Counted from the stretch's first letter, positions 38,157 to 45,329 are shown. The stretch is 64,000 bases of DNA from an uncultured bacterium (GCA_963826535.1 CAWGXL010000010.1:106814-170813); one strand, 5' to 3'. Numbers and translations: made by a program. The notes: a model not told the origin generated them from the letters alone.

Positions 38157-39224
38157 TTATAGAATTAATTCTGAAGGATACTTTTGCGAGTCTGATTTAT
38201 ATGCGGAACCTTTTGAAAAGGCGGTCAGATTTGAATAATGTATCATATCTTGAGAAAGCTTAATAAAATCGCTGGATTCTTTCCCAAAATATACTTCATT
38301 TTTATTGAATTCTGTTTGCGATGAAGGTTTTATAAACAAATCAAGAAAATTCATTCCATTTAGGCAACACGCATAAATCCACGCGGGTGGACGAGGATTT
38401 ATTTCATATAAATAGAACTCTCCATCTGTTGTTCGAATTGTCTCAAATTCAATGACACAATCATTCAGGTCAATATTTTTACAAAAAGACTCGACCTTTT
38501 TTAGCATATCCGTGCTTAATTTCAATTTACCGAACCATGTTGCTCCATTTCCATCCATACCAATTTTTTCCATCTCTAAATAAGCAACAACCTCTCCTTG
38601 TTTATAAGCTACTAAGCCATTTATAAATTCCCCTACGATTTCTTTTTGAACAATACAATGAATTTCCTTATTATTCCATATATTACAAATTCTCTTTATC
38701 GCTGCATCTAATTCTTGTTTGTTAGTTGCTCGTATTGCTCCTTTTGTTAGCCCTTTAACAAATACAGGATAGCTAACTTCATCCGCAAATTCTTCACCCT
38801 CTTTAATTGAAGTAATGATCCTTGTTTTAGGATTTGCGAATTGATTATATGTAATATTCTCTAAATTAGTCTTCCTTATTTTTCTGAGTATTTCAATATT
38901 TGGAGCAATTAAATTAAATTTTAGAAAATCAAGCTTTTCACGTATAAAGGAAAATAAGATTGTTGTTTCGTCGTAACAGGGGACAATATACTCAATATCA
39001 TATGCCTTTTTTAAAGTACTTAGTTTTTTGACTAGACTGTCTAGATTTAAATTTCGTATTTCTTCAAGCACAACTGTTTTTTCAAAAAGATCTGATGAGG
39101 TTATAAAGGGTGTGTCATCAGCGCCATATACAGTATGTCCCGCTGCTTTTAGACTTCTAGCCACACCGATTCCTGCTTGTGGACTATCAATAACTTTTAA
39201 ATCAGTAACTAAAAACTTTGCCAT
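38157..39224 (-). CDS. ATP-grasp fold ligase
   Basis: EINPRP motif and KxxxG-rich central domain; 355 aa; last gene of a 4-gene minus-strand operon. Confidence 0.6.
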   Translation of the reverse strand: MAKFLVTDLKVIDSPQAGIGVARSLKAAGHTVYGADDTPFITSSDLFEKTVVLEEIRNLNLDSLVKKLSTLKKAYDIEYIVPCYDETTILFSFIREKLDFLKFNLIAPNIEILRKIRKTNLENITYNQFANPKTRIITSIKEGEEFADEVSYPVFVKGLTKGAIRATNKQELDAAIKRICNIWNNKEIHCIVQKEIVGEFINGLVAYKQGEVVAYLEMEKIGMDGNGATWFGKLKLSTDMLKKVESFCKNIDLNDCVIEFETIRTTDGEFYLYEINPRPPAWIYACCLNGMNFLDLFIKPSSQTEFNKNEVYFGKESSDFIKLSQDMIHYSNLTAFSKGSAYKSDSQKYPSELIL

Positions 39225-39225
39225 A

Positions 39226-40278
39226 TTAATTTATTAATATTTCTGGAATCTTAGTAATAAAATTTGATGCTTGAGATAGGGAATATGCCCCAACTCTTGA
39301 TAGTAGCATTTTATCACCGACCTCTGGTGTTCCAGTAACAAGGTAATTTTCTGCAATTTTATCAACTTGCATGCAGGAATTACCGAATATATTAATAAAA
39401 ACAGGTTGCCCTTTCTGTTTTTCTGCTTTGTATTCAATGCTATATTTTTTTTCCCAGTAACATGGAAAGTGCATAATATTTGCATCAATAACGACATCAA
39501 TATTTCCACCATCAAGTTCTTTCTTTGAAACAATTGTTGTTTCTAAGTCAAAAGCGTTTTCAACGAGGTTACGACCTACTTCTGAGATAATTAGTATATT
39601 TTTGGGCACTAAACTATTAACAATTTTGGGCAATTCCTGATACATTGCTTTTTGGTAGATTATTTCATCAGCTCCAGGCAATCCTCCTCCGATATCTAAA
39701 TACTCCAGCTCTAAGTTATGTTCTTTAATAAGTTCGTTAAACTTTTCTAGTATAAGGGAATAGTTAACAACAGAAAAGTTATTTGTGGAAAAGTGAAAAT
39801 GGAACCCCTTCAATTTATTCCCAAGCTGTTTAATAACTTTTTTTACTCCCTTTGACTCAACATCATATCCAAACCTATTCCAAATTCCTGGTTTGTTGAT
39901 AAATAGACGTAAGCCAATGGTAATTTTGTCGGTATATTTTTTATCTAAATTTGCAATGAGTTCAATATCAGTATCATTATCAATATTTAAAAACAAGCGC
40001 TCAACACCAGAATTAATAATATCTTTAACTAACGCCACTGACTTTGAAGGGCCATTTAAAACTAAGTGCTTTATATGATATTTCTTAACTAATTCCCATT
40101 CATAATCGGAAACAATTTCAAATGAACAATGTTGATTAATCGTTTCTAAAACAGGCTCCGAAAAGTTCGTTTTTACAGAATAAAAAATTCTGAAATTGAT
40201 TTCTTGCGACACAAAAGCCTCATTAAGCTTTTTAATGTTCTGTTCTACTGCATGTTTTTTAAACAAAAACTTTGCCAT
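39226..40278 (-). CDS. PLP-dependent decarboxylase of the Orn/DAP/Arg (alanine racemase-fold, LysA/carboxynorspermidine decarboxylase-like) family
   Basis: FYSVKTN (the YxVKAN PLP-lysine motif); 350 aa; 1-nt gap to the ATP-grasp gene. Confidence 0.65.
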   Translation of the reverse strand: MAKFLFKKHAVEQNIKKLNEAFVSQEINFRIFYSVKTNFSEPVLETINQHCSFEIVSDYEWELVKKYHIKHLVLNGPSKSVALVKDIINSGVERLFLNIDNDTDIELIANLDKKYTDKITIGLRLFINKPGIWNRFGYDVESKGVKKVIKQLGNKLKGFHFHFSTNNFSVVNYSLILEKFNELIKEHNLELEYLDIGGGLPGADEIIYQKAMYQELPKIVNSLVPKNILIISEVGRNLVENAFDLETTIVSKKELDGGNIDVVIDANIMHFPCYWEKKYSIEYKAEKQKGQPVFINIFGNSCMQVDKIAENYLVTGTPEVGDKMLLSRVGAYSLSQASNFITKIPEILIN

Positions 40279-40420
40279 ATCTAAAAAATATTCTTTGTTT
40301 TATAATATTCGTAGTCTTTGCCTATTGCATAAAATTCTCTATATTCATACAAGGGAGCAAAATCTAAGTTTATATTTCCTAATTCATATGGGCTTTTTTT
40401 ATTAGAAAAGTGAACTTCCC

Positions 40421-41128
40421 CTAGAGGAGGCATAATGGCAAGACTCCCCCCATCATTCGATCATTATAAAACGGAGAAGTATATTTTCCAACGGAATTTA
40501 CAAAAACCAGCGCGAACGCATTTTCATAGCTACGAGCAATGCATAATTCTCTATAATACTTCTTTTCTAAAGAGAATGAATACCTTGCCTGCAAAGCATT
40601 TCCGCCAATTCCCCAAAAACTTGGAACAACGATCAAATCAATCTTATTTATATAATGTCTAAATACTTCCGGAAGAATAAGATCCCAACAAATTGCCATA
40701 CCTACTTTTATATCTCCAACATTGAAAACAGGATACTCATTGCTTGATTTACAAATATAATTTTCGTTATAAATTAACGCTTTTTTAGAATATTCTGCAA
40801 GAATTTTCCCGTTTTTTAGTGACCATGTCATATTTTTATATTCTTTGTCATGTAAGACTATTGCGGAACCAAATATAAATGTGGTCTTGGGATAGGAAGT
40901 AGATAGCTTCAATAATTCTTCTTTTACGTTAATTTTCGAAAGTTGTTTTTTGTAACCCACAAAGGCTTCAAGATTTAGCGAACCAGAGAATGTATATTCA
41001 GGAAAGATAACAAGATCAGAATGCTTAATTTTTTTTTTATTTGTATACAAAAGGTTACTAATATTATTTAGATTAAATCTAATGTCATTAAATTTTGGTA
41101 AACTTTGAAAATATGCAATGCTTAACAT
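40421..41128 (-). CDS. Carbon-nitrogen hydrolase (nitrilase superfamily) protein
   Basis: Catalytic triad context DLVIFPEY (Glu) and GMAICWD (Cys); 235 aa. Confidence 0.7.
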   Translation of the reverse strand: MLSIAYFQSLPKFNDIRFNLNNISNLLYTNKKKIKHSDLVIFPEYTFSGSLNLEAFVGYKKQLSKINVKEELLKLSTSYPKTTFIFGSAIVLHDKEYKNMTWSLKNGKILAEYSKKALIYNENYICKSSNEYPVFNVGDIKVGMAICWDLILPEVFRHYINKIDLIVVPSFWGIGGNALQARYSFSLEKKYYRELCIARSYENAFALVFVNSVGKYTSPFYNDRMMGGVLPLCLL

Positions 41129-41131
41129 ACG

Positions 41132-42187
41132 TTAAATAAAATATGAACGATCAATTACTAATTTAGGTTTACGATCCGGCATCTTCAATGGCCGATTTAT
41201 AAGAAGGGGAATATACCCTCTCCGACAACTTTCACCTCTTATACGCTTCTCATCAATATCTCTCACCCATCGGGCACCGTGCCCCAATTCTTTTGCGACT
41301 TTTTCAGGAGATTGTTTTTGATACCACAACCTTCTTATTATTGGATCAATGATTGTTGCATCTACTCTATCACCTCCATAATGCGAAGAATCAGCTATAT
41401 TAAGTTCGCTTACCAAGGGTTTACGTTGTTGAATATAATTAGGCACTCCAATATCTCTAGCCAATGCGTAAACTTCCACTTTATAGAGATCACTGAGGGG
41501 TGCTATATTACCTGCTGGTCCTCCTATCGAATAAGCTGCAAGAATATACTCTGACCCATTAGTTGACCCAACTGAAATTAAATCGTTCTCTTCTGCCATC
41601 GAGTAAAGATTATTTGCTCGTATTCGCGGCAACTGACTACTTCTTGACCATATTTTTCTATATGGTTTTCGAGATGCTTCATATTGATCACCTATATCAA
41701 TATAATCATAATTCAATTTTAAGTCACTACACATCTGTTTTGCGTATTGAATATCAACCCACTCTGCAGGAGTTCCTTTGTAATCCTCAACATTAACATT
41801 AGGATTTCCTTGTCCCATTATTACAGTTTTTAGTTCTGTTCCTTTCTGTTTTGAATATCCCTGAAGCAATCTCGTAATTACCGCAGAATCTAATCCACCA
41901 GAAAGAGCAACAACAAATCCATCACATTTTGGCTTGCTAAATCCGGTAAAGTCAACAAGAGATTTATCCAGATAACTGAATAACGCCTTTACATAAGCCT
42001 CTGTAATATGAATATTCTCAACCCGTACTCTACTATTAAAATTTACCTCTCTCTCGTTGGGTATAGGAAACCATGTACTCGTCTCACTCGAAGGGGAAGC
42101 CAACTTTGTGCGCTCCGCATTTTGTAAATGCATCATATCATTTGAATGTTGTAAAGAACTATCGTAAAGGTAATTTTCTATTTGCAT
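41132..42187 (-). CDS. nadE: NAD+ synthetase-family PP-loop ATP pyrophosphatase (NadE-like) with a ~100-aa N-terminal extension
   Basis: PP-loop VVALSGGLDSAV; 351 aa; 3-nt gap to the downstream CN-hydrolase gene. Confidence 0.65.
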   Translation of the reverse strand: MQIENYLYDSSLQHSNDMMHLQNAERTKLASPSSETSTWFPIPNEREVNFNSRVRVENIHITEAYVKALFSYLDKSLVDFTGFSKPKCDGFVVALSGGLDSAVITRLLQGYSKQKGTELKTVIMGQGNPNVNVEDYKGTPAEWVDIQYAKQMCSDLKLNYDYIDIGDQYEASRKPYRKIWSRSSQLPRIRANNLYSMAEENDLISVGSTNGSEYILAAYSIGGPAGNIAPLSDLYKVEVYALARDIGVPNYIQQRKPLVSELNIADSSHYGGDRVDATIIDPIIRRLWYQKQSPEKVAKELGHGARWVRDIDEKRIRGESCRRGYIPLLINRPLKMPDRKPKLVIDRSYFI

Positions 42188-42501
42188 AATGTAAAAAGTA
42201 TATTGCGTTATTATACCATATTCTCGAAAAACAAGTAATTATATAATAAATTAATAAAAATATAGTATTTACAATAAATAAATATTACATTTAAATATTA
42301 CGTTTATTAAAAATTAAACAAACTTATAGTAATAATTTTAGCGTCTGTTTCAGTAAAATGTTAATGTATATAATTTCAATTATAGGCTTGCAAATTTCAA
42401 AAAAAGGTGTATAATTCTAGCACTCAATATTATAAGTCTTACATCTGCCCCTTATCGAATTTAAAAACGAAAAACTGCCAACATAAGTACTTGTAAGGAG
42501 T

Positions 42502-44433
42502 ATGACAACTTATAGAAATTATAAATTAACTGAAGATTCAACCGGAAAAAAAGCTCATTTTAAAAATAAAAATTTAAAAAATAAAAATCTGGCAGTATTT
42601 GTGCATGGATTTACAGGTGATTACTTATCTACTTGGGGAAAGTTTCCGCAATTTCTAACTAACGATCCAAGATTATCCCACTACGATTTTCTGTTTTGGG
42701 GTTATTCAAGTAATTTACTTACTTCAAAAGATAATTTTATTTCGGATAACATCAAACAGCTTTTTATACAACTTCTTAATAAACATAAGACCAATCAACA
42801 TATAGATGTGGTAGCCCAGAGTCTGCAAACAGAGTTGAAATACATCGAGGATTATGAAAATATTACCCTAATAGGACATAGTCTTGGAGGACTTATTATA
42901 AGATCATATATTATCCAAAATCTAATTGAACGCAAAAAGGAAAATCTGGACAGGATCAATAAAATAAACCAAATTATTTTATTCGGAACACCCAACGAAG
43001 GGATAGATATGGCAAATAACAAATTACTAAGCAGTTTCAATAATCAAATATATGATGTCGGATCATACAATGAATTTATCAATACTTTGAGAGAAGAATG
43101 GATAGAGTTGGTATTTAAGGATAAAAATTTAGGCTTTACTACTTTAATGGTTGCGGGAGAAGATGATTATTTTGTCCCTTTTAAACAAGTAACGAAATAT
43201 TTCCGTGATTCAAGAGAGGTAACTCAGGGTGATCATACAACAATGGTAAAGCCTAAATCAGTTAATGATCTATCTTACAAAATTGTCGCAAATAATCTAT
43301 TAAAGGTTAGCCAAAATAAAAATTCGCCTGAAGAAGGTCATTCTATTCCTAGGCAGATATATCCATCAAGTGAATATTTAAAGACAGAATTAGATAAAAT
43401 TAGAAAATTGATAGCCAGCAGAGGATTGGATGATGAAGATTGGTCCTGTGCTGTTTCTTCACAATACTTTTTGGTTAGACTCGCCCGGCTTTTAAAGATT
43501 ACCGATACATCAGAGTACCTTAATCTTCTGGACTTATTTTTAAAAAGTTTTTATATGAGAGTAGATAATTCGATTATATTGTCTGAGGATAAAATTCTTA
43601 TTACACCTGTGGAGGCTAGACGAATGAAACAATTTATGATTGAGGAAGACAAGAGGGATGATTACTTTACTCGATACAGCAAAACCACAGCAAATAATTT
43701 AGATACGGAGTTACTTCAAGATAATTATCATTATGGGCTTGTAGCTCAAATTAGCAGGGCGAGAGAATTTCCAGATAGTTCAACGCTAAGATTGATACAA
43801 GGACTAGCAATGCAGAGACTACTTTACAGGAATGAGAAAAAACCTATTGATGATCATGGAGGATGGTATCCACAAAGGCTCCCGTGGCTCACTGCCAGAA
43901 TACTCATATCGCTTAAGAATTCGGACTATGAAGTCAGGAGTGATAAAGAATATATTGAAAAGACAGCTTCTAAAGCTATAGATTATTTAATCAGGTCTAT
44001 CTACCAGGATAAGTATTGGAGAAGTGGTGCCGGAGAATGGGTATCGGATTTGGAGTCAACTGCATTATGCCTTGAGGCGATTGATGAGTGGGGGAAAATA
44101 AAAGAGTACGAACATAAAATACTTCCGATAATAAAACATTTTTTGGCATTAGAAAATGAGTGGCTGGAACATCCGTCCTTTGATTCTGAAGAAGAATCAA
44201 ATGCAACCCTCGCTTCTGTCACTCTCTTATGCAATATTCTCATAATCATACATAATAATTTTAAAGAAGAAATTGCCATTGATTATAAAAAATACCTTGA
44301 TTATCTCGCGAGCGTCTTTGATTATATGGTTAAATCCTCTGCTTTGGTGGTCCGTCAATACAATACAATGCCACAGATAACTTTTTATATTACTCGATTT
44401 GTCTTGGCGCTTGATAGCTCATTAGTCAGATAA
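42502..44433 (+). CDS. Alpha/beta-hydrolase (DUF676/PGAP1-like lipase fold; nucleophile elbow GHSLGG) fused to a ~370-aa C-terminal helical-repeat domain
   Basis: AVFVHGFTGD oxyanion region and LIGHSLGGLI. C-terminal repeats with GGW/SGAGEW-type motifs reminiscent of alpha/alpha-toroid proteins. Preceded by a ~310-bp, >85% AT intergenic region. Confidence 0.55.
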   Translation: MTTYRNYKLTEDSTGKKAHFKNKNLKNKNLAVFVHGFTGDYLSTWGKFPQFLTNDPRLSHYDFLFWGYSSNLLTSKDNFISDNIKQLFIQLLNKHKTNQHIDVVAQSLQTELKYIEDYENITLIGHSLGGLIIRSYIIQNLIERKKENLDRINKINQIILFGTPNEGIDMANNKLLSSFNNQIYDVGSYNEFINTLREEWIELVFKDKNLGFTTLMVAGEDDYFVPFKQVTKYFRDSREVTQGDHTTMVKPKSVNDLSYKIVANNLLKVSQNKNSPEEGHSIPRQIYPSSEYLKTELDKIRKLIASRGLDDEDWSCAVSSQYFLVRLARLLKITDTSEYLNLLDLFLKSFYMRVDNSIILSEDKILITPVEARRMKQFMIEEDKRDDYFTRYSKTTANNLDTELLQDNYHYGLVAQISRAREFPDSSTLRLIQGLAMQRLLYRNEKKPIDDHGGWYPQRLPWLTARILISLKNSDYEVRSDKEYIEKTASKAIDYLIRSIYQDKYWRSGAGEWVSDLESTALCLEAIDEWGKIKEYEHKILPIIKHFLALENEWLEHPSFDSEEESNATLASVTLLCNILIIIHNNFKEEIAIDYKKYLDYLASVFDYMVKSSALVVRQYNTMPQITFYITRFVLALDSSLVR

Positions 44434-44519
44434 ATACTACCTTCCTCAATACTTTTTACTTATTTCATACATTTTGGTACTTGAAATTTCCTCATTAAAT
44501 TAGGTATTATTACAGCAAT

Positions 44520-45329
44520 ATGAGTTGGGGTAAGAAATTAGCGCAAATTTGGATAAATTATGTTCCGCCGGCAAGACCTTCTTACGCCGAACTATGTATT
44601 TATACGGAATATCTTCGTGAGATTCAAAAAAGTTTAAAAAGAAGAGTAGAACTGCTTATTTTAGGATCAACTGCAGAATTTAGAGATTGGGGATTTGAAC
44701 AGTTTCTTAATGTTACTGTTATTGATTATAGCTATGATTATTATTTAGAGTCTGGCAGGGGCACAAAACATAAAAATTTAAACGAGAGGATGGTTCATAA
44801 AAGATGGCAAGATATGGATTTCGAAAATAAATTTGATGTAATTATTGGCGATATGGTAATTGGAAATTTACCGCCGCACGATGTACAAAATTTTCTAGAG
44901 AGAGCCTCTCAGGCACTTACTAAAAATGGGCTTTTTATGACGAAAAGTGTATTTAAAAATGGTAAAAAAACTCCAAACATCGAAGAATTACTGAAAGATT
45001 ATTATTCGCTTCATAGTCATCATCACCCTCTTACAAAAATGCTTTATGGTTTGCTCCTTACATGTAGAGATCCCCATCAGGAACTTTTAAATTTTCAAAA
45101 GTTGTGGGGCAAGTTAGAAAAAGCACACAAGAGCGGATTTCTCAAAAGTGAAACTATGGAAATATTTTCGAAACTAGGATGGAAAGACATTGTGAAATTC
45201 CAATTCAATATACCGGATTTTGATAATTGGGAAAATATGATAAAAAAATCTTTTAATGGGTTTAAAAAAGAATATTGCGGAGATGTTTATAGCCAGAATA
45301 TTCCAGTTTATATAATATACAACTCATAG
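44520..45329 (+). CDS. Putative SAM-dependent methyltransferase-like protein
   Basis: LLILGSTAEF and DVIIGDMVIGNL resemble MTase motifs I and post-I. Weak call. Confidence 0.35.
   Translation: MSWGKKLAQIWINYVPPARPSYAELCIYTEYLREIQKSLKRRVELLILGSTAEFRDWGFEQFLNVTVIDYSYDYYLESGRGTKHKNLNERMVHKRWQDMDFENKFDVIIGDMVIGNLPPHDVQNFLERASQALTKNGLFMTKSVFKNGKKTPNIEELLKDYYSLHSHHHPLTKMLYGLLLTCRDPHQELLNFQKLWGKLEKAHKSGFLKSETMEIFSKLGWKDIVKFQFNIPDFDNWENMIKKSFNGFKKEYCGDVYSQNIPVYIIYNS

Follow-up and report, generated by a model that had tools for sequence, protein, structure and literature searches.

An operon of four genes, encoding a NadE-like PP-loop ATPase, a CN-hydrolase, a PLP-dependent decarboxylase and an ATP-grasp ligase, was analysed in DNA from an uncultured bacterium. 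Sequence comparison supports a dedicated amidating pathway rather than ordinary NAD synthesis. The chances are about even that the operon is one self-contained pathway, in which two building blocks are joined and their carboxylates are then stripped or masked.

The window (the whole stretch of DNA analysed, 64,000 nt) carries the four open reading frames on the minus strand, as placed by an earlier note on this DNA, whose coordinates were confirmed. The features are as follows, the genes being given in their order from 5′ to 3′ (NadE-like, CN-hydrolase, decarboxylase, ATP-grasp).

41132–42187, minus strand: NadE-like PP-loop ATP pyrophosphatase, 351 aa, predicted adenylating/amidating subunit (Pfam NAD_synthase, 1e-22)
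40281–41128, minus strand: nitrilase-superfamily (CN_hydrolase) gene, predicted glutaminase subunit, 282 aa when repaired (Pfam CN_hydrolase, 2.7e-12)
39226–40278, minus strand: alanine-racemase-fold PLP decarboxylase of a putative FslC/FigC-like branch, 350 aa (Pfam Orn_Arg_deC_N, 9e-17)
38157–39224, minus strand: predicted ATP-grasp carboxylate-amine ligase of the CPS-like/PylC-like type, 355 aa (ATPgrasp_Ter, 3e-4; PRK12767, 3e-11; Foldseek)
42188–42501, no strand assigned: AT-rich intergenic region of 314 nt upstream of the operon, likely promoter region (consensus matches)

The genes form one operon, with intergenic gaps of 3, 2 and 1 nt once a frameshift in the hydrolase gene is repaired, and a sequence scan gave no convincing terminator inside it. 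The 314-nt upstream region is shared with a divergently transcribed gene at 42502 and has promoter-like sites on the minus strand at 42458–42429 and 42364–42335 (consensus matches only). The operon adjoins mraY-ftsW-murG-ftsQ-ftsA (the dcw cluster), converging on ftsA, with which it is not co-transcribed. No second nadE was found within the 64-kb window. Comparison of the four proteins with the PADLOC models of anti-phage defence systems returned nothing beyond one chance-level match.

The NadE-like protein and the CN-hydrolase

The NadE-like protein has, by its AF2 model (pLDDT 87.5), a NadE fold, and the top 50 Foldseek matches in the PDB were all NadE (2e18, TMt 0.84). The PP-loop SGGLDS is at residues 96–101, and the ATP, PPi and Mg residues listed in Table S4 of De Ingeniis et al. 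(2012; PMC3376133) are retained (S96, D100, S101, R190, E213, K236 and P257). Most NaAD-contact residues are lost. In alignments at about 24% identity, in which the mapping may be off by a position, the replacements from P. horikoshii numbering to the window were Asn105 to S184, Tyr139 to A218, Leu183 to E261, Glu192 to H269 and Lys241 to C321; Thr141 to S220 was the only conservative change in the NaAD site. Asp145 (ATP ribose in Table S4) and Ser180 (MgII in Table S4) are also replaced, by G223 and L258. In the 11 species of Table S4 (PMC3376133) the replaced residues vary little or not at all, and the NaAD-site replacements are conserved family-wide in the NadE-like alignment. The substrate loop (GGPAGN, 222–227) is remodelled, and every member of the family carries the replacement loop (A/S)(F/Y)SxGGPxG.

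The earlier note had given the protein an N-terminal extension of about 100 aa. Measured against P. horikoshii NadE, the extension is about 65–70 aa, and it is also present in a wider group of long NadE-like proteins. Within it only residues ~30–60 are conserved (WFPIPxEGEVN, with WFPIP at 39–43), and a winged-helix RRE was not predicted there by AF2. At the other end a conserved tail (~315–351; GExCRRxY...INR...IDRSYF) runs about 35 residues beyond the Pfam domain.

The NadE-like protein is placed outside canonical NadE by sequence comparison. In a NJ tree of 271 columns, a simple distance method, canonical short NadE was split from all long NadE-like forms with a bootstrap of 95/100, and the cassette clade was recovered at 73/100. 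Scores against full-length NadE equivalogs were far under the cut-off (80 vs 255 bits for NF010587; 36 vs 250 for NF001979). The domain model TIGR00552 was passed (71.6 vs a cut-off of 63.65 bits), and annotation pipelines would therefore name the protein NAD synthase. The view in the earlier note that the genes do not serve ordinary NAD synthesis thus draws support from the tree, the equivalog scores and the strict linkage described below.

The hydrolase open reading frame as listed (235 aa, ending at 40421) is broken by a one-base frameshift in a run of six G at 40445–40450. With one G added, the frame runs on to 40281 and encodes a protein of 282 aa, which aligns over residues 1–282 at 56–62% identity to intact relatives of 281–286 aa and has its catalytic triad (E44/K115/C147) intact. 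For this genome there are three possibilities: the pathway runs on free ammonia, it no longer works, or the frameshift is an artefact of sequencing. The 3-nt gap to the NadE-like gene (TAA CGT ATG) was as described before, and wherever a CPR contig includes both genes they are direct neighbours. The hydrolase scored 45 bits against the fused NAD synthase model NF010588 (N-terminal half) and 44 bits against deaminated-glutathione amidase; its best PDB relative was an archaeal Nit protein (7e-4), and none of the NADS glutaminase domains in the PDB matched it at E<=0.01. Since it is not specifically NADS-G-like, the hydrolase could act on a pathway intermediate instead of as a glutaminase. The spacing, the intact triad and the C-terminal tail of the NadE-like protein suggest a glutaminase role, an extended C-terminal loop, to which that tail may correspond, being the signature of glutamine-using NAD synthetases (PMC3376133).

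The earlier note had described the pair as a split, order-reversed NAD synthetase. The split and the adjacency hold; the arrangement is not unusual, since a type C two-subunit NAD synthetase is known and is active in Thermus thermophilus (De Ingeniis et al., 2012; PMC3376133), and the order NadE then hydrolase also occurs in archaeal housekeeping-like contexts. In these, sister long NadE-like genes adjoin a CN-hydrolase gene together with an AsnC regulator and adenylate kinase. As in type C, a single-domain NadE-fold synthetase gene stands beside a separate nitrilase-superfamily subunit, with PP-loop and ATP/PPi/Mg residues intact and a possibly equivalent C-terminal tail. Unlike type C, most NaAD-contact residues are replaced, the tree sets the synthetase apart from canonical NadE, the hydrolase cannot clearly be assigned to the NADS glutaminase type, and the pair is always joined to the decarboxylase and the ATP-grasp ligase.

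The decarboxylase and the ATP-grasp ligase

Assignment of the decarboxylase to the LysA family was correct as to the fold; score and motif comparison places it more precisely in a FslC/FigC-like branch. The best NCBIfam match was FslC (1e-28), at 100 bits against a cut-off of 500, so that the protein is no FslC equivalog. The best PDB match was 7kh2, N-citrylornithine decarboxylase (3.7e-27), with the best ODC/DAPDC at ~1e-12; by these E-values FslC/FigC is nearer than ODC/DAPDC by about 14 orders of magnitude. The PLP lysine (K36), glycine loop (GGG, 197–199) and catalytic C302 are conserved in all loci, the last within the family-invariant motif GNSCMQ(V/I)D; in the FigC clade this cysteine is supplied across the dimer. 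The residue after the catalytic Cys is Met, as in FigC (C-M-Q); the same position holds Glu in DAPDC and Asp in ODC, where it meets the free distal amine. N-citrylornithine decarboxylase itself was considered as the identity of the enzyme and rejected: the citrate-binding H357 and R387 of FigC correspond to V305, a position held by V or I throughout the family, and to Q336, and the acyl group is therefore not expected to be citrate. Members of the FigC clade (SbnH, AcsE, BtrK and MccE) act on conjugated amino acids (PMC7857480).

The ligase is weakly matched by sequence (ATPgrasp_Ter, 3e-4; PRK12767, 3e-11), and its AF2 model (pLDDT 86) has a clear ATP-grasp fold. Foldseek returned the CPS-like 2pn1 (1.8e-18), then biotin carboxylases, PurT and PylC (4ffl/4ffr), and a profile of the family matched PurD, CPS and biotin carboxylase at 1e-5 to 1e-6. 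The nucleotide/Mg motif E274-I-N276-P-R278 is present; E274, N276, R278 and K157 are invariant or nearly so in the family alignment. PylC and the uncharacterised CPS-like family of PRK12767 and PDB 2pn1 were thus the best structural neighbours, although identity is only 15–19%, all NCBIfam scores are far below the cut-off and no other pyl genes are present. PylC, of pyrrolysine biosynthesis, acylates the epsilon-amine of lysine, giving the kind of product that an FslC-like decarboxylase would accept.

Occurrence and linkage of the four genes

Searches for related loci recovered about 25 non-redundant ones, all of which have the same four genes in the same order; the proteins are 42–72% identical across loci, a conservation far beyond chance. 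The loci are almost all labelled Patescibacteria (CPR) and are very rare: about 10 species carry the cassette among 185,579 GTDB representatives, and homologues of the NadE-like protein numbered 28 at 90% clustering in 5.8 billion proteins, with nine clusters at E<1e-30 among 1.84 billion representatives. The linkage is strict and exclusive. Only the four families recur around one another, and the flanks are unrelated between loci (Fic/transposase/toxin, TrwC relaxase, MarR/TerC, sortase/PEGA, IleRS/HAD, ParE-MazE/RecR, SHMT and, in the window, the dcw cluster). No transporter, regulator or resistance gene accompanies the cassette; secreted natural products usually come with such genes, and their lack counts against the pathway proposed below. 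No PqqD-like gene or conserved small open reading frame was found beside it in 16 non-redundant CPR loci.

In one population the NadE-like gene has a premature TGA in 22 contigs, the other three genes being intact; that this is tolerated argues against an essential housekeeping role for the NadE-like gene. In a distant lineage (NadE-like protein 30% identical) the decarboxylase gene is divergent from ATP-grasp and NadE-like genes in that order, and the hydrolase is missing. The decarboxylase and the ligase, which the earlier note had proposed to be functionally tied to the NadE-like gene, were linked to it in every relative found, including this reordered lineage. Of the two outcomes that the earlier note had named as fatal to its idea, clustering with housekeeping NadE and loss of linkage in relatives, neither was thus observed.

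Chitinophagales have the order PqqD, ATP-grasp, FslC-like decarboxylase, without NadE. Because the ATP-grasp and decarboxylase genes are kept there, the ligase-decarboxylase pair appears to be the core and amidation an added module. A small PqqD-family protein (31–33 bits vs a cut-off of 23.4) precedes this module in 8 of 10 Bacteroidota loci, and its presence in Chitinophagales hints that these relatives act on a peptide rather than on a free metabolite. The ATP-grasp proteins of CPR and Chitinophagales are only ~27% identical.

Proposed pathway and rival explanations

In the proposed pathway the ATP-grasp enzyme would join a carboxylate to an amine through an amide bond, the amine being most plausibly, by analogy with PylC, that of the side chain of a diamino acid (ornithine, lysine or diaminopimelate). 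The decarboxylase, judged from its closest relatives, would remove the alpha-carboxyl of the N-acylated amino acid. The NadE-derived enzyme would adenylate a remaining carboxylate for conversion to a carboxamide, with ammonia that the neighbouring nitrilase-type subunit would probably release from glutamine, as happens in two-subunit NAD synthetase. The favoured order is ligation, decarboxylation and then amidation, and the last two steps might be exchanged. The expected product, inferred like the substrates, would be small, would carry an amide but hardly any carboxylates or none, and may resemble a polyamine.

An ATP-grasp enzyme and a PP-loop glutamine amidotransferase make amidated di- or pseudo-peptides in the NAGGN (AsnO and Ngg) and dapdiamide (DdaH and DdaF) pathways. 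These resemble the cassette in combining an ATP-grasp amide-bond former with an adenylating amidotransferase that turns carboxylate into carboxamide; they differ in that their amidotransferases are of the asparagine-synthetase type, with an N-terminal Ntn glutaminase domain, whereas the cassette has a NadE-type enzyme and a separate nitrilase-type subunit, and in that they include no decarboxylase. The ligate-then-decarboxylate logic may be likened to that of FigA/FigC and BtrJ/BtrK. In the rhizoferrin pathway of FigA/FigC (FslA/FslC), N-citrylornithine is made and is then the substrate of N-citrylornithine decarboxylase (PMC7857480). Shared with it are side-chain-amine ligation followed by decarboxylation, as proposed here, and a decarboxylase by far most similar to FigC, with C-M-Q in common; the cassette ligase, however, is of the ATP-grasp type and not a NIS synthetase, there is an extra amidation module, and no siderophore transporter is present. 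In butirosin biosynthesis BtrJ (ATP-grasp) and BtrK (alanine-racemase-fold decarboxylase) act on the carrier protein BtrI, and pair an ATP-grasp enzyme with a decarboxylase of the same clade, a likeness taken from the literature (PMC7857480) rather than from direct sequence comparison. Unlike butirosin, the cassette comes with no carrier protein gene and no other aminoglycoside genes.

It is quite unlikely that the first two genes are a genuine type C glutamine-dependent NAD synthetase, with the decarboxylase and ATP-grasp genes an unrelated module (e.g. of polyamine or lysine metabolism) in the same operon. Such a synthetase would agree with the known and active separate nitrilase-like subunit (PMC3376133), the NadE fold and ATP site, the passing of the TIGR00552 cut-off, the archaeal sister genes beside CN-hydrolase and the lack of another nadE in the 64-kb window. 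It is opposed by the replacement of invariant NaAD-site residues and by a linkage that is strict at all loci and kept in the reordered lineage without the hydrolase; it also fits poorly with a cassette found in very few genomes even within Patescibacteria, mobile between unrelated contexts and tolerant of a premature stop in one population.

Somewhat less improbable, and still unlikely, is modification of a ribosomal peptide or carrier protein, with the ATP-grasp enzyme adding an amino acid to a scaffold on which decarboxylation and amidation would follow, as in BtrI/BtrJ/BtrK and scaffold-peptide pathways. PqqD domains bind peptides as chaperones and are characteristic of RiPP systems, and the position of PqqD ahead of the distant Chitinophagales module would fit, as would the lack of export or regulatory genes; but the 16 CPR loci have neither a PqqD-like gene nor a conserved small open reading frame, the low ATP-grasp identity means that substrates may differ, and the NadE-like extension is not predicted to be a winged-helix RRE. 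BtrK, which belongs to the same clade as FigC, has a glutamylated carrier protein as its decarboxylation substrate (PMC7857480), and this also speaks for a scaffold. The dcw neighbourhood in the window raises a further reading, to which we give little credence: that its enzymes modify peptidoglycan, either the stem peptide or a recycled muropeptide, by amidating D-Glu/DAP, decarboxylating peptide-bound DAP to lysine and adding a side-chain amino acid by means of the ATP-grasp enzyme. ATP-grasp ligases (D-Asp ligase) and PP-loop amidotransferases (AsnB/LtsA type) tailor peptidoglycan elsewhere in bacteria, N-acylated diamino acids are substrates of the decarboxylase clade, and sortase genes lie within a few kb at two other loci. 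However, a cell-wall neighbourhood is seen at no other locus, in the window the operon runs towards ftsA and does not share its transcript, and no Mur-ligase-like or lipid II-related gene co-occurs.

A more specific form of the self-contained amidating pathway, put forward tentatively and with more doubt than confidence, is an undescribed route, largely of CPR/Patescibacteria, whose product would be a cationic amide free of carboxylates, made from two amino acids and standing in for a polyamine; for this route NadE would have been recruited from NAD synthesis to a new substrate. Each enzymatic step (amide bond formation, decarboxylation and amidation) would remove one carboxylate and thus drop one negative charge. 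If true, the NadE family would gain its first assigned role other than in NAD/NMN synthesis, and the cassette would join the small number of dedicated biosynthetic pathways known from such reduced genomes.

Organisation and distribution of the cassette

In the window, all four cassette genes are on the minus strand. Their open reading frames (ORFs) and Pfam matches were as follows.

Cassette ORFs in the window
42187..41132, minus strand: NadE-like protein, 351 aa; NAD_synthase (1e-22, residues 85-314)
41128..40421 as listed, minus strand: CN-hydrolase, 235 aa; CN_hydrolase (2.7e-12)
40278..39226, minus strand: decarboxylase, 350 aa; Orn_Arg_deC_N and Orn_DAP_Arg_deC (9e-17)
39224..38157, minus strand: ATP-grasp protein, 355 aa; ATPgrasp_Ter, sub-threshold match only

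NCBIfam agreed with Pfam on all four proteins. Full-length equivalog cut-offs were all missed widely, and the sole cut-off passed was that of the nadE domain TIGR00552 (71.6 vs 63.65 bits). The listed hydrolase ORF stops early, its remaining ~50 codons running on in another frame to 40281. Inserting a single G into the G6 stretch at 40445-40450 restored a hydrolase of 282 aa that reads ...DRMMGGSLAIMPPLGEV..., exactly as relatives do, and is 56-62% identical to intact homologues across residues 1-282; the frameshift is either genuine or a homopolymer error. With the hydrolase repaired, the intergenic gaps are 3, 2 and 1 nt, the first of them (TAA CGT ATG) being the 3-nt NadE-like/hydrolase spacing given in the earlier note. 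The fused NAD synthase model NF010588 was matched at positions 6-208 by the hydrolase and at 262-435 by the NadE-like protein; the gene order is thus reversed with respect to the fused enzyme, as that note had also stated. Promoter-like matches occur in the 314 nt of AT-rich sequence upstream of the operon, a scan of the sequence gave no convincing internal terminator, and the operon converges on ftsA, the end of an mraY-ftsW-murG-ftsQ-ftsA (dcw) cluster.

The first 16 nt of the decarboxylase and ATP-grasp genes of the window are identical (ATATGGCAAAGTTTTT; window 40265-40285 and 39211-39231) and both proteins start MAKFL, a common start absent from relatives (e.g., the contig L001); the start region may have been duplicated or converted locally, or the identity may be due to chance. 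Two genes occupy window 42502-45329. The first, the divergent neighbour, encodes a 643-aa protein with an N-terminal alpha/beta-hydrolase domain matching the Lamassu effector model LmuA (8e-12) and a long C-terminal half without an assigned family, and is followed by a gene for a 269-aa SAM methyltransferase with a weak match to the MADS model mad2 (3e-7). Judged by these matches the two genes may form a small defence island; the pair is not kept beside the cassette at other loci.

Among 5.8 billion protein clusters, the NadE-like protein had only 28 relatives and the ATP-grasp protein 78, and the only organism names on them were 'Patescibacteria group bacterium' and, for a single protein (P0106, 31% identical), 'archaeon'. 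Loci were collected by exact protein look-ups (L001-L016), by a scan of 185,579 species genomes (L017-L025) and by a scan of JGI metagenomes (L042-L050). Gene content and order were identical on all recovered contigs, as far as each contig reaches, with one variant (L005) carrying a two-gene insertion; the CN-hydrolase measured 281-286 aa, the decarboxylase 336-355 aa and the ATP-grasp protein 351-367 aa. The decarboxylase and ATP-grasp genes, which the earlier note had placed in one operon with the NadE-like gene, were linked to it at all cassette loci. When the ORFs of all loci were clustered, the four cassette families were the only recurring ones, and the flanks were unrelated (Fic/transposase/YafQ, TrwC relaxase, MarR/TerC, sortase/PEGA, IleRS/HAD, ParE-MazE/RecR, SHMT and, in the window, the dcw cluster). 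The four genes are a unit and, since only these families recur between unrelated flanks, a self-contained and probably mobile one. It is very rare, with about 10 occurrences in the 185,579 species representatives and nine contigs in 241 million metagenome records.

The cassette corresponds to no curated NCBIfam family. A defence system was rejected, as no PADLOC defence-system match was obtained, and so was a phage-borne origin: IMG/VR held no relative and the PHROG matches were to generic NAD synthetase and nitrilase families. Phage matches to the NadE-like protein were likewise generic cyanophage or pelagiphage NAD synthetases, and plasmid matches to the ATP-grasp protein (Streptomyces, Halorussus), with no decarboxylase or amidotransferase nearby, gave no functional clue. 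P0105, a 499-aa protein on a 4.2-kb JGI contig, was rejected as Rosetta-stone evidence for a decarboxylase-ATP-grasp fusion. Its junction falls at a 'PCY' tripeptide common to both proteins, with ~80 residues of each deleted (the C-terminus of the decarboxylase, the N-terminus of the ligase), so that a deletion or assembly chimera is more likely than a functional fusion.

In the L005 variant the two extra genes lie between those for the decarboxylase and the ATP-grasp protein (L005:13128-15326). One encodes 468 aa: its N-terminal half weakly resembles a 2OG-Fe(II) oxygenase (17 bits, under the cut-off), and pentapeptide repeats are fused to it. The second encodes 262 aa without a family. Three contigs with cassettes 46-50% identical to the Patescibacteria ones (L019, L020 and L024) are labelled Woesearchaeota, Pseudomonadales or Gammaproteobacteria, and are probably mis-binned short contigs and not true hosts.

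The NadE-like protein and the hydrolase

The AlphaFold model of the NadE-like protein (pLDDT 87.5) had NAD (or NMN) synthetases as all of its top 50 PDB matches, the best being P. horikoshii 2e18 (TM 0.84 on target). Ligand residues tabulated for 11 species (Table S4 of De Ingeniis et al., PMC3376133) were carried to the NadE-like protein via alignments of ~24% identity, so that single positions may be shifted by one. The ligands of ATP, pyrophosphate and Mg are retained (S96, D100, S101, R190, E213, K236 and P257). Residues invariant or nearly so across the 11 species are replaced, most of them in the deamido-NAD (NaAD) site or loop: from P. horikoshii to the window, Asn105 to S184, Tyr139 to A218, Asp145 to G223, Asp149 to N227, Ser180 to L258, Leu183 to E261, Glu192 to H269 and Lys241 to C321, with Thr141 to S220 as the sole conservative change. 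Asp149 is Asp in only 6 of the 11 species, and Asp145 and Ser180 are listed under ATP ribose and MgII, respectively (PMC3376133), which means that the ATP site, too, is partly altered. A replacement loop, (A/S)(F/Y)SxGGPxGx(I/V)AP, is invariant in the family and one residue shorter than the canonical GYFTKxGDGxxDxxP. Despite the possible shifts, the overall pattern of these alignments stands, with an adenylation site that is kept and a NaAD site that is lost.

In a neighbour-joining tree, canonical short NadE was split from all long forms (95/100), with the cassette clade at 73/100; the protein thus does not cluster with housekeeping NadE, the comparison for which the earlier note had called. 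No canonical nadE is present within the 64-kb window. The N-terminal extension, put in that note at ~100 aa, is instead ~65-70 aa, of which ~30 residues are conserved (WFPIPxEGEVN), part of the motif being common to other long NadE-like forms. A tail of ~35 residues after the Pfam domain is also conserved; an extended C-terminal loop is a reported signature of glutamine-using NAD synthetases (PMC3376133).

The repaired hydrolase has the nitrilase-superfamily triad (E44, K115 and C147) and is distant from all solved structures, the top match being an archaeal Nit protein (7e-4). Its scores against the glutaminase half of NAD synthetase (45 bits) and deaminated-glutathione amidase (44 bits) were equal. 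By analogy it would be the ammonia donor to the NadE-like protein, a role suggested by the tight coupling of the two genes and the precedent of two-subunit (type C) NAD synthetase, and not by its own sequence.

Both genes are damaged at some loci. In the population represented by L007-L009 the NadE-like gene has a premature in-frame TGA (...GNEM*IAIMGQGN; L007:7559-8578, also L008 and L009), several samples together giving 22 contigs with the truncated product; at this site the residue in relatives is K, R or E. Recoding of TGA was rejected, since a further gene of this locus terminates in TGA and neighbours are full length under the standard code; the in-frame TGA thus looks like a real premature stop. 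The hydrolase gene is disrupted in the window, in L005 and in L009 (one of three sister contigs); the remaining three cassette genes are otherwise intact at the TGA-bearing loci. The decarboxylase and ligase genes were intact in 16/16 non-redundant loci compared; in the later metagenome contigs L042 and L044 the ligase aligns in two pieces. Because the amidating genes are damaged at some loci where the decarboxylase and ligase stay intact, the data fit, in small numbers, amidation as a dispensable add-on and a NadE-like gene that is not essential.

The decarboxylase, the ATP-grasp protein and distant arrangements

The decarboxylase has the PLP lysine (K36), the glycine loop, the EVGR motif and the catalytic cysteine (C302). 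Its closest solved relative by far is FigC/FslC (3.7e-27, vs ~1e-12 for ODC and DAPDC), with which it has C-M-Q in common from the catalytic cysteine onward. GNSCMQ(V/I)D is invariant in the loci of Patescibacteria (CPR), and the Chitinophagales homologues described below have GPLCMNID. At the same place DAPDC has C-E and ODC has C-D, where the free distal amine is bound. FigC/FslC is an N-citrylornithine decarboxylase; SbnH, AcsE, BtrK and MccE belong to its clade, whose members all decarboxylate an already conjugated amino acid (PMC7857480). The citrate contacts of FigC, H357 and R387 (PMC7857480), are V305 and Q336 in the cassette enzyme, so that the acyl group is not citrate and probably bears no free carboxylates.

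Sequence evidence on the ATP-grasp protein was weak, its family profile finding PurD, CPS and biotin carboxylase. The model (pLDDT 86) matched the uncharacterised 'CPS-like' 2pn1 (1.8e-18), with biotin carboxylases, PurT and PylC next, and K157 and an E274-x-N276-x-R278 motif are conserved. PylC acylates the epsilon-amine of lysine, and a PylC-type product would, by analogy, be the kind that an FslC-like decarboxylase accepts.

A profile search of 1.84 billion representatives gave only nine clusters at E<1e-30. NadE-like bit scores ran from 589 to 323 in the family and then fell sharply to P0113 (142 bits), a 307-aa relative encoded 7 nt after a 374-aa ATP-grasp gene that is divergent from a 408-aa decarboxylase gene; this locus has no hydrolase gene. 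On a metagenomic contig of 46% GC (L039:1814-5201, = L040) the decarboxylase gene is divergent from ATP-grasp and NadE-like (307 aa) genes, without a CN-hydrolase, and the 320-380-aa proteins around them had no Pfam match.

ATP-grasp homologues of Chitinophagales/Bacteroidota (27-29% identity) adjoin an FslC-like decarboxylase of 452 aa (FslC 241 bits, lysA 216 bits). These proteins match ATPgrasp_Ter above cut-off, a small PqqD-family protein precedes them in 8/10 loci (31-33 bits vs a cut-off of 23.4), and the module has neither a NadE-like nor a hydrolase gene. Its flanks vary (a LytTR two-component system or a urea-transporter-M23 fusion), and the module may encode an uncharacterised system that modifies peptides or builds on a scaffold. 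Because ligase and decarboxylase are kept there without the other two genes, these two appear to form the core, and the amidating genes a module added to it.

Other long NadE-like proteins (~100-113 bits) adjoin a divergent AsnC-type regulator. The gene is followed in L041 by those for a 289-aa CN-hydrolase and an adenylate kinase, and in L038, a housekeeping neighbourhood of an archaeon (TBP, MCM and RFC nearby), by one for an uncharacterised 189-aa protein. Genes of this type are probably ordinary two-subunit NAD synthetases of little-studied archaea, with the same NadE-to-hydrolase order.

Distant loci
L027:7577-10499, L034:7703-10526, also L028-L033, L035 and L037: PqqD, ATP-grasp and FslC-like decarboxylase module; decarboxylase 452-463 aa
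L041:1028-4120 and L038:7410-9585: long NadE-like proteins, 341-345 aa; canonical loop missing to varying degrees

Proposed pathway, alternatives and meaning

In the proposed pathway the ATP-grasp enzyme would couple a carboxylate onto a diamino acid at its side-chain amine, the FslC-like decarboxylase would strip the alpha-carboxyl from the conjugate, and the NadE-derived synthetase with its nitrilase-type subunit would amidate a remaining carboxylate, glutamine-dependently. Such a route would yield a small amide bearing few carboxylates or none. We give this general scheme an even chance; the more specific reading, a polyamine-like product, is tentative and rather doubtful.

A genuine type C NAD synthetase accompanied by an unrelated passenger module is improbable: the NadE-like, ATP-grasp and decarboxylase triad is kept in two gene orders, which would be difficult to account for if the three did not act together. 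A peptide or carrier protein as the target of modification would suit the PqqD partner of the Chitinophagales module, but neither a PqqD gene nor a conserved small ORF (precursor peptide) was found beside the CPR cassettes, and we regard this reading as unlikely. The dcw neighbourhood, found in this window alone, would favour tailoring of peptidoglycan stem peptides, to which we assign a low probability.

Returning to ligation, decarboxylation and amidation of a small molecule, the NAGGN and dapdiamide pathways offer known examples of an ATP-grasp enzyme paired with a PP-loop amidotransferase. The split NadE and hydrolase singled out by the earlier note is present here, but the same arrangement, a split NadE with a nitrilase-like subunit, had already been published as type C (PMC3376133), and FigA/FigC and BtrJ/BtrK follow the same ligase-decarboxylase logic (PMC7857480). 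In the literature searched, all three features were not found together around a NadE-type enzyme without a NaAD site. On sequence grounds the cassette appears to be a CPR-restricted pathway built from a repurposed NadE and familiar enzyme superfamilies.

The cassette would show the NadE scaffold reused beyond NaAD/NaMN with a separate nitrilase-type ammonia donor, and would bring an ATP-grasp ligase into the 'ligate then decarboxylate' logic known from FigA/FigC and BtrJ/BtrK. Current or expected annotations as 'NAD+ synthase' and 'diaminopimelate decarboxylase' would lead to NAD and lysine biosynthesis being wrongly credited in metabolic reconstructions. With their minimal genomes, Patescibacteria are believed to produce very little of their own; in such genomes a strictly conserved, horizontally mobile pathway of four enzymes would point to a metabolite that is unobtainable from hosts or used in host interaction.
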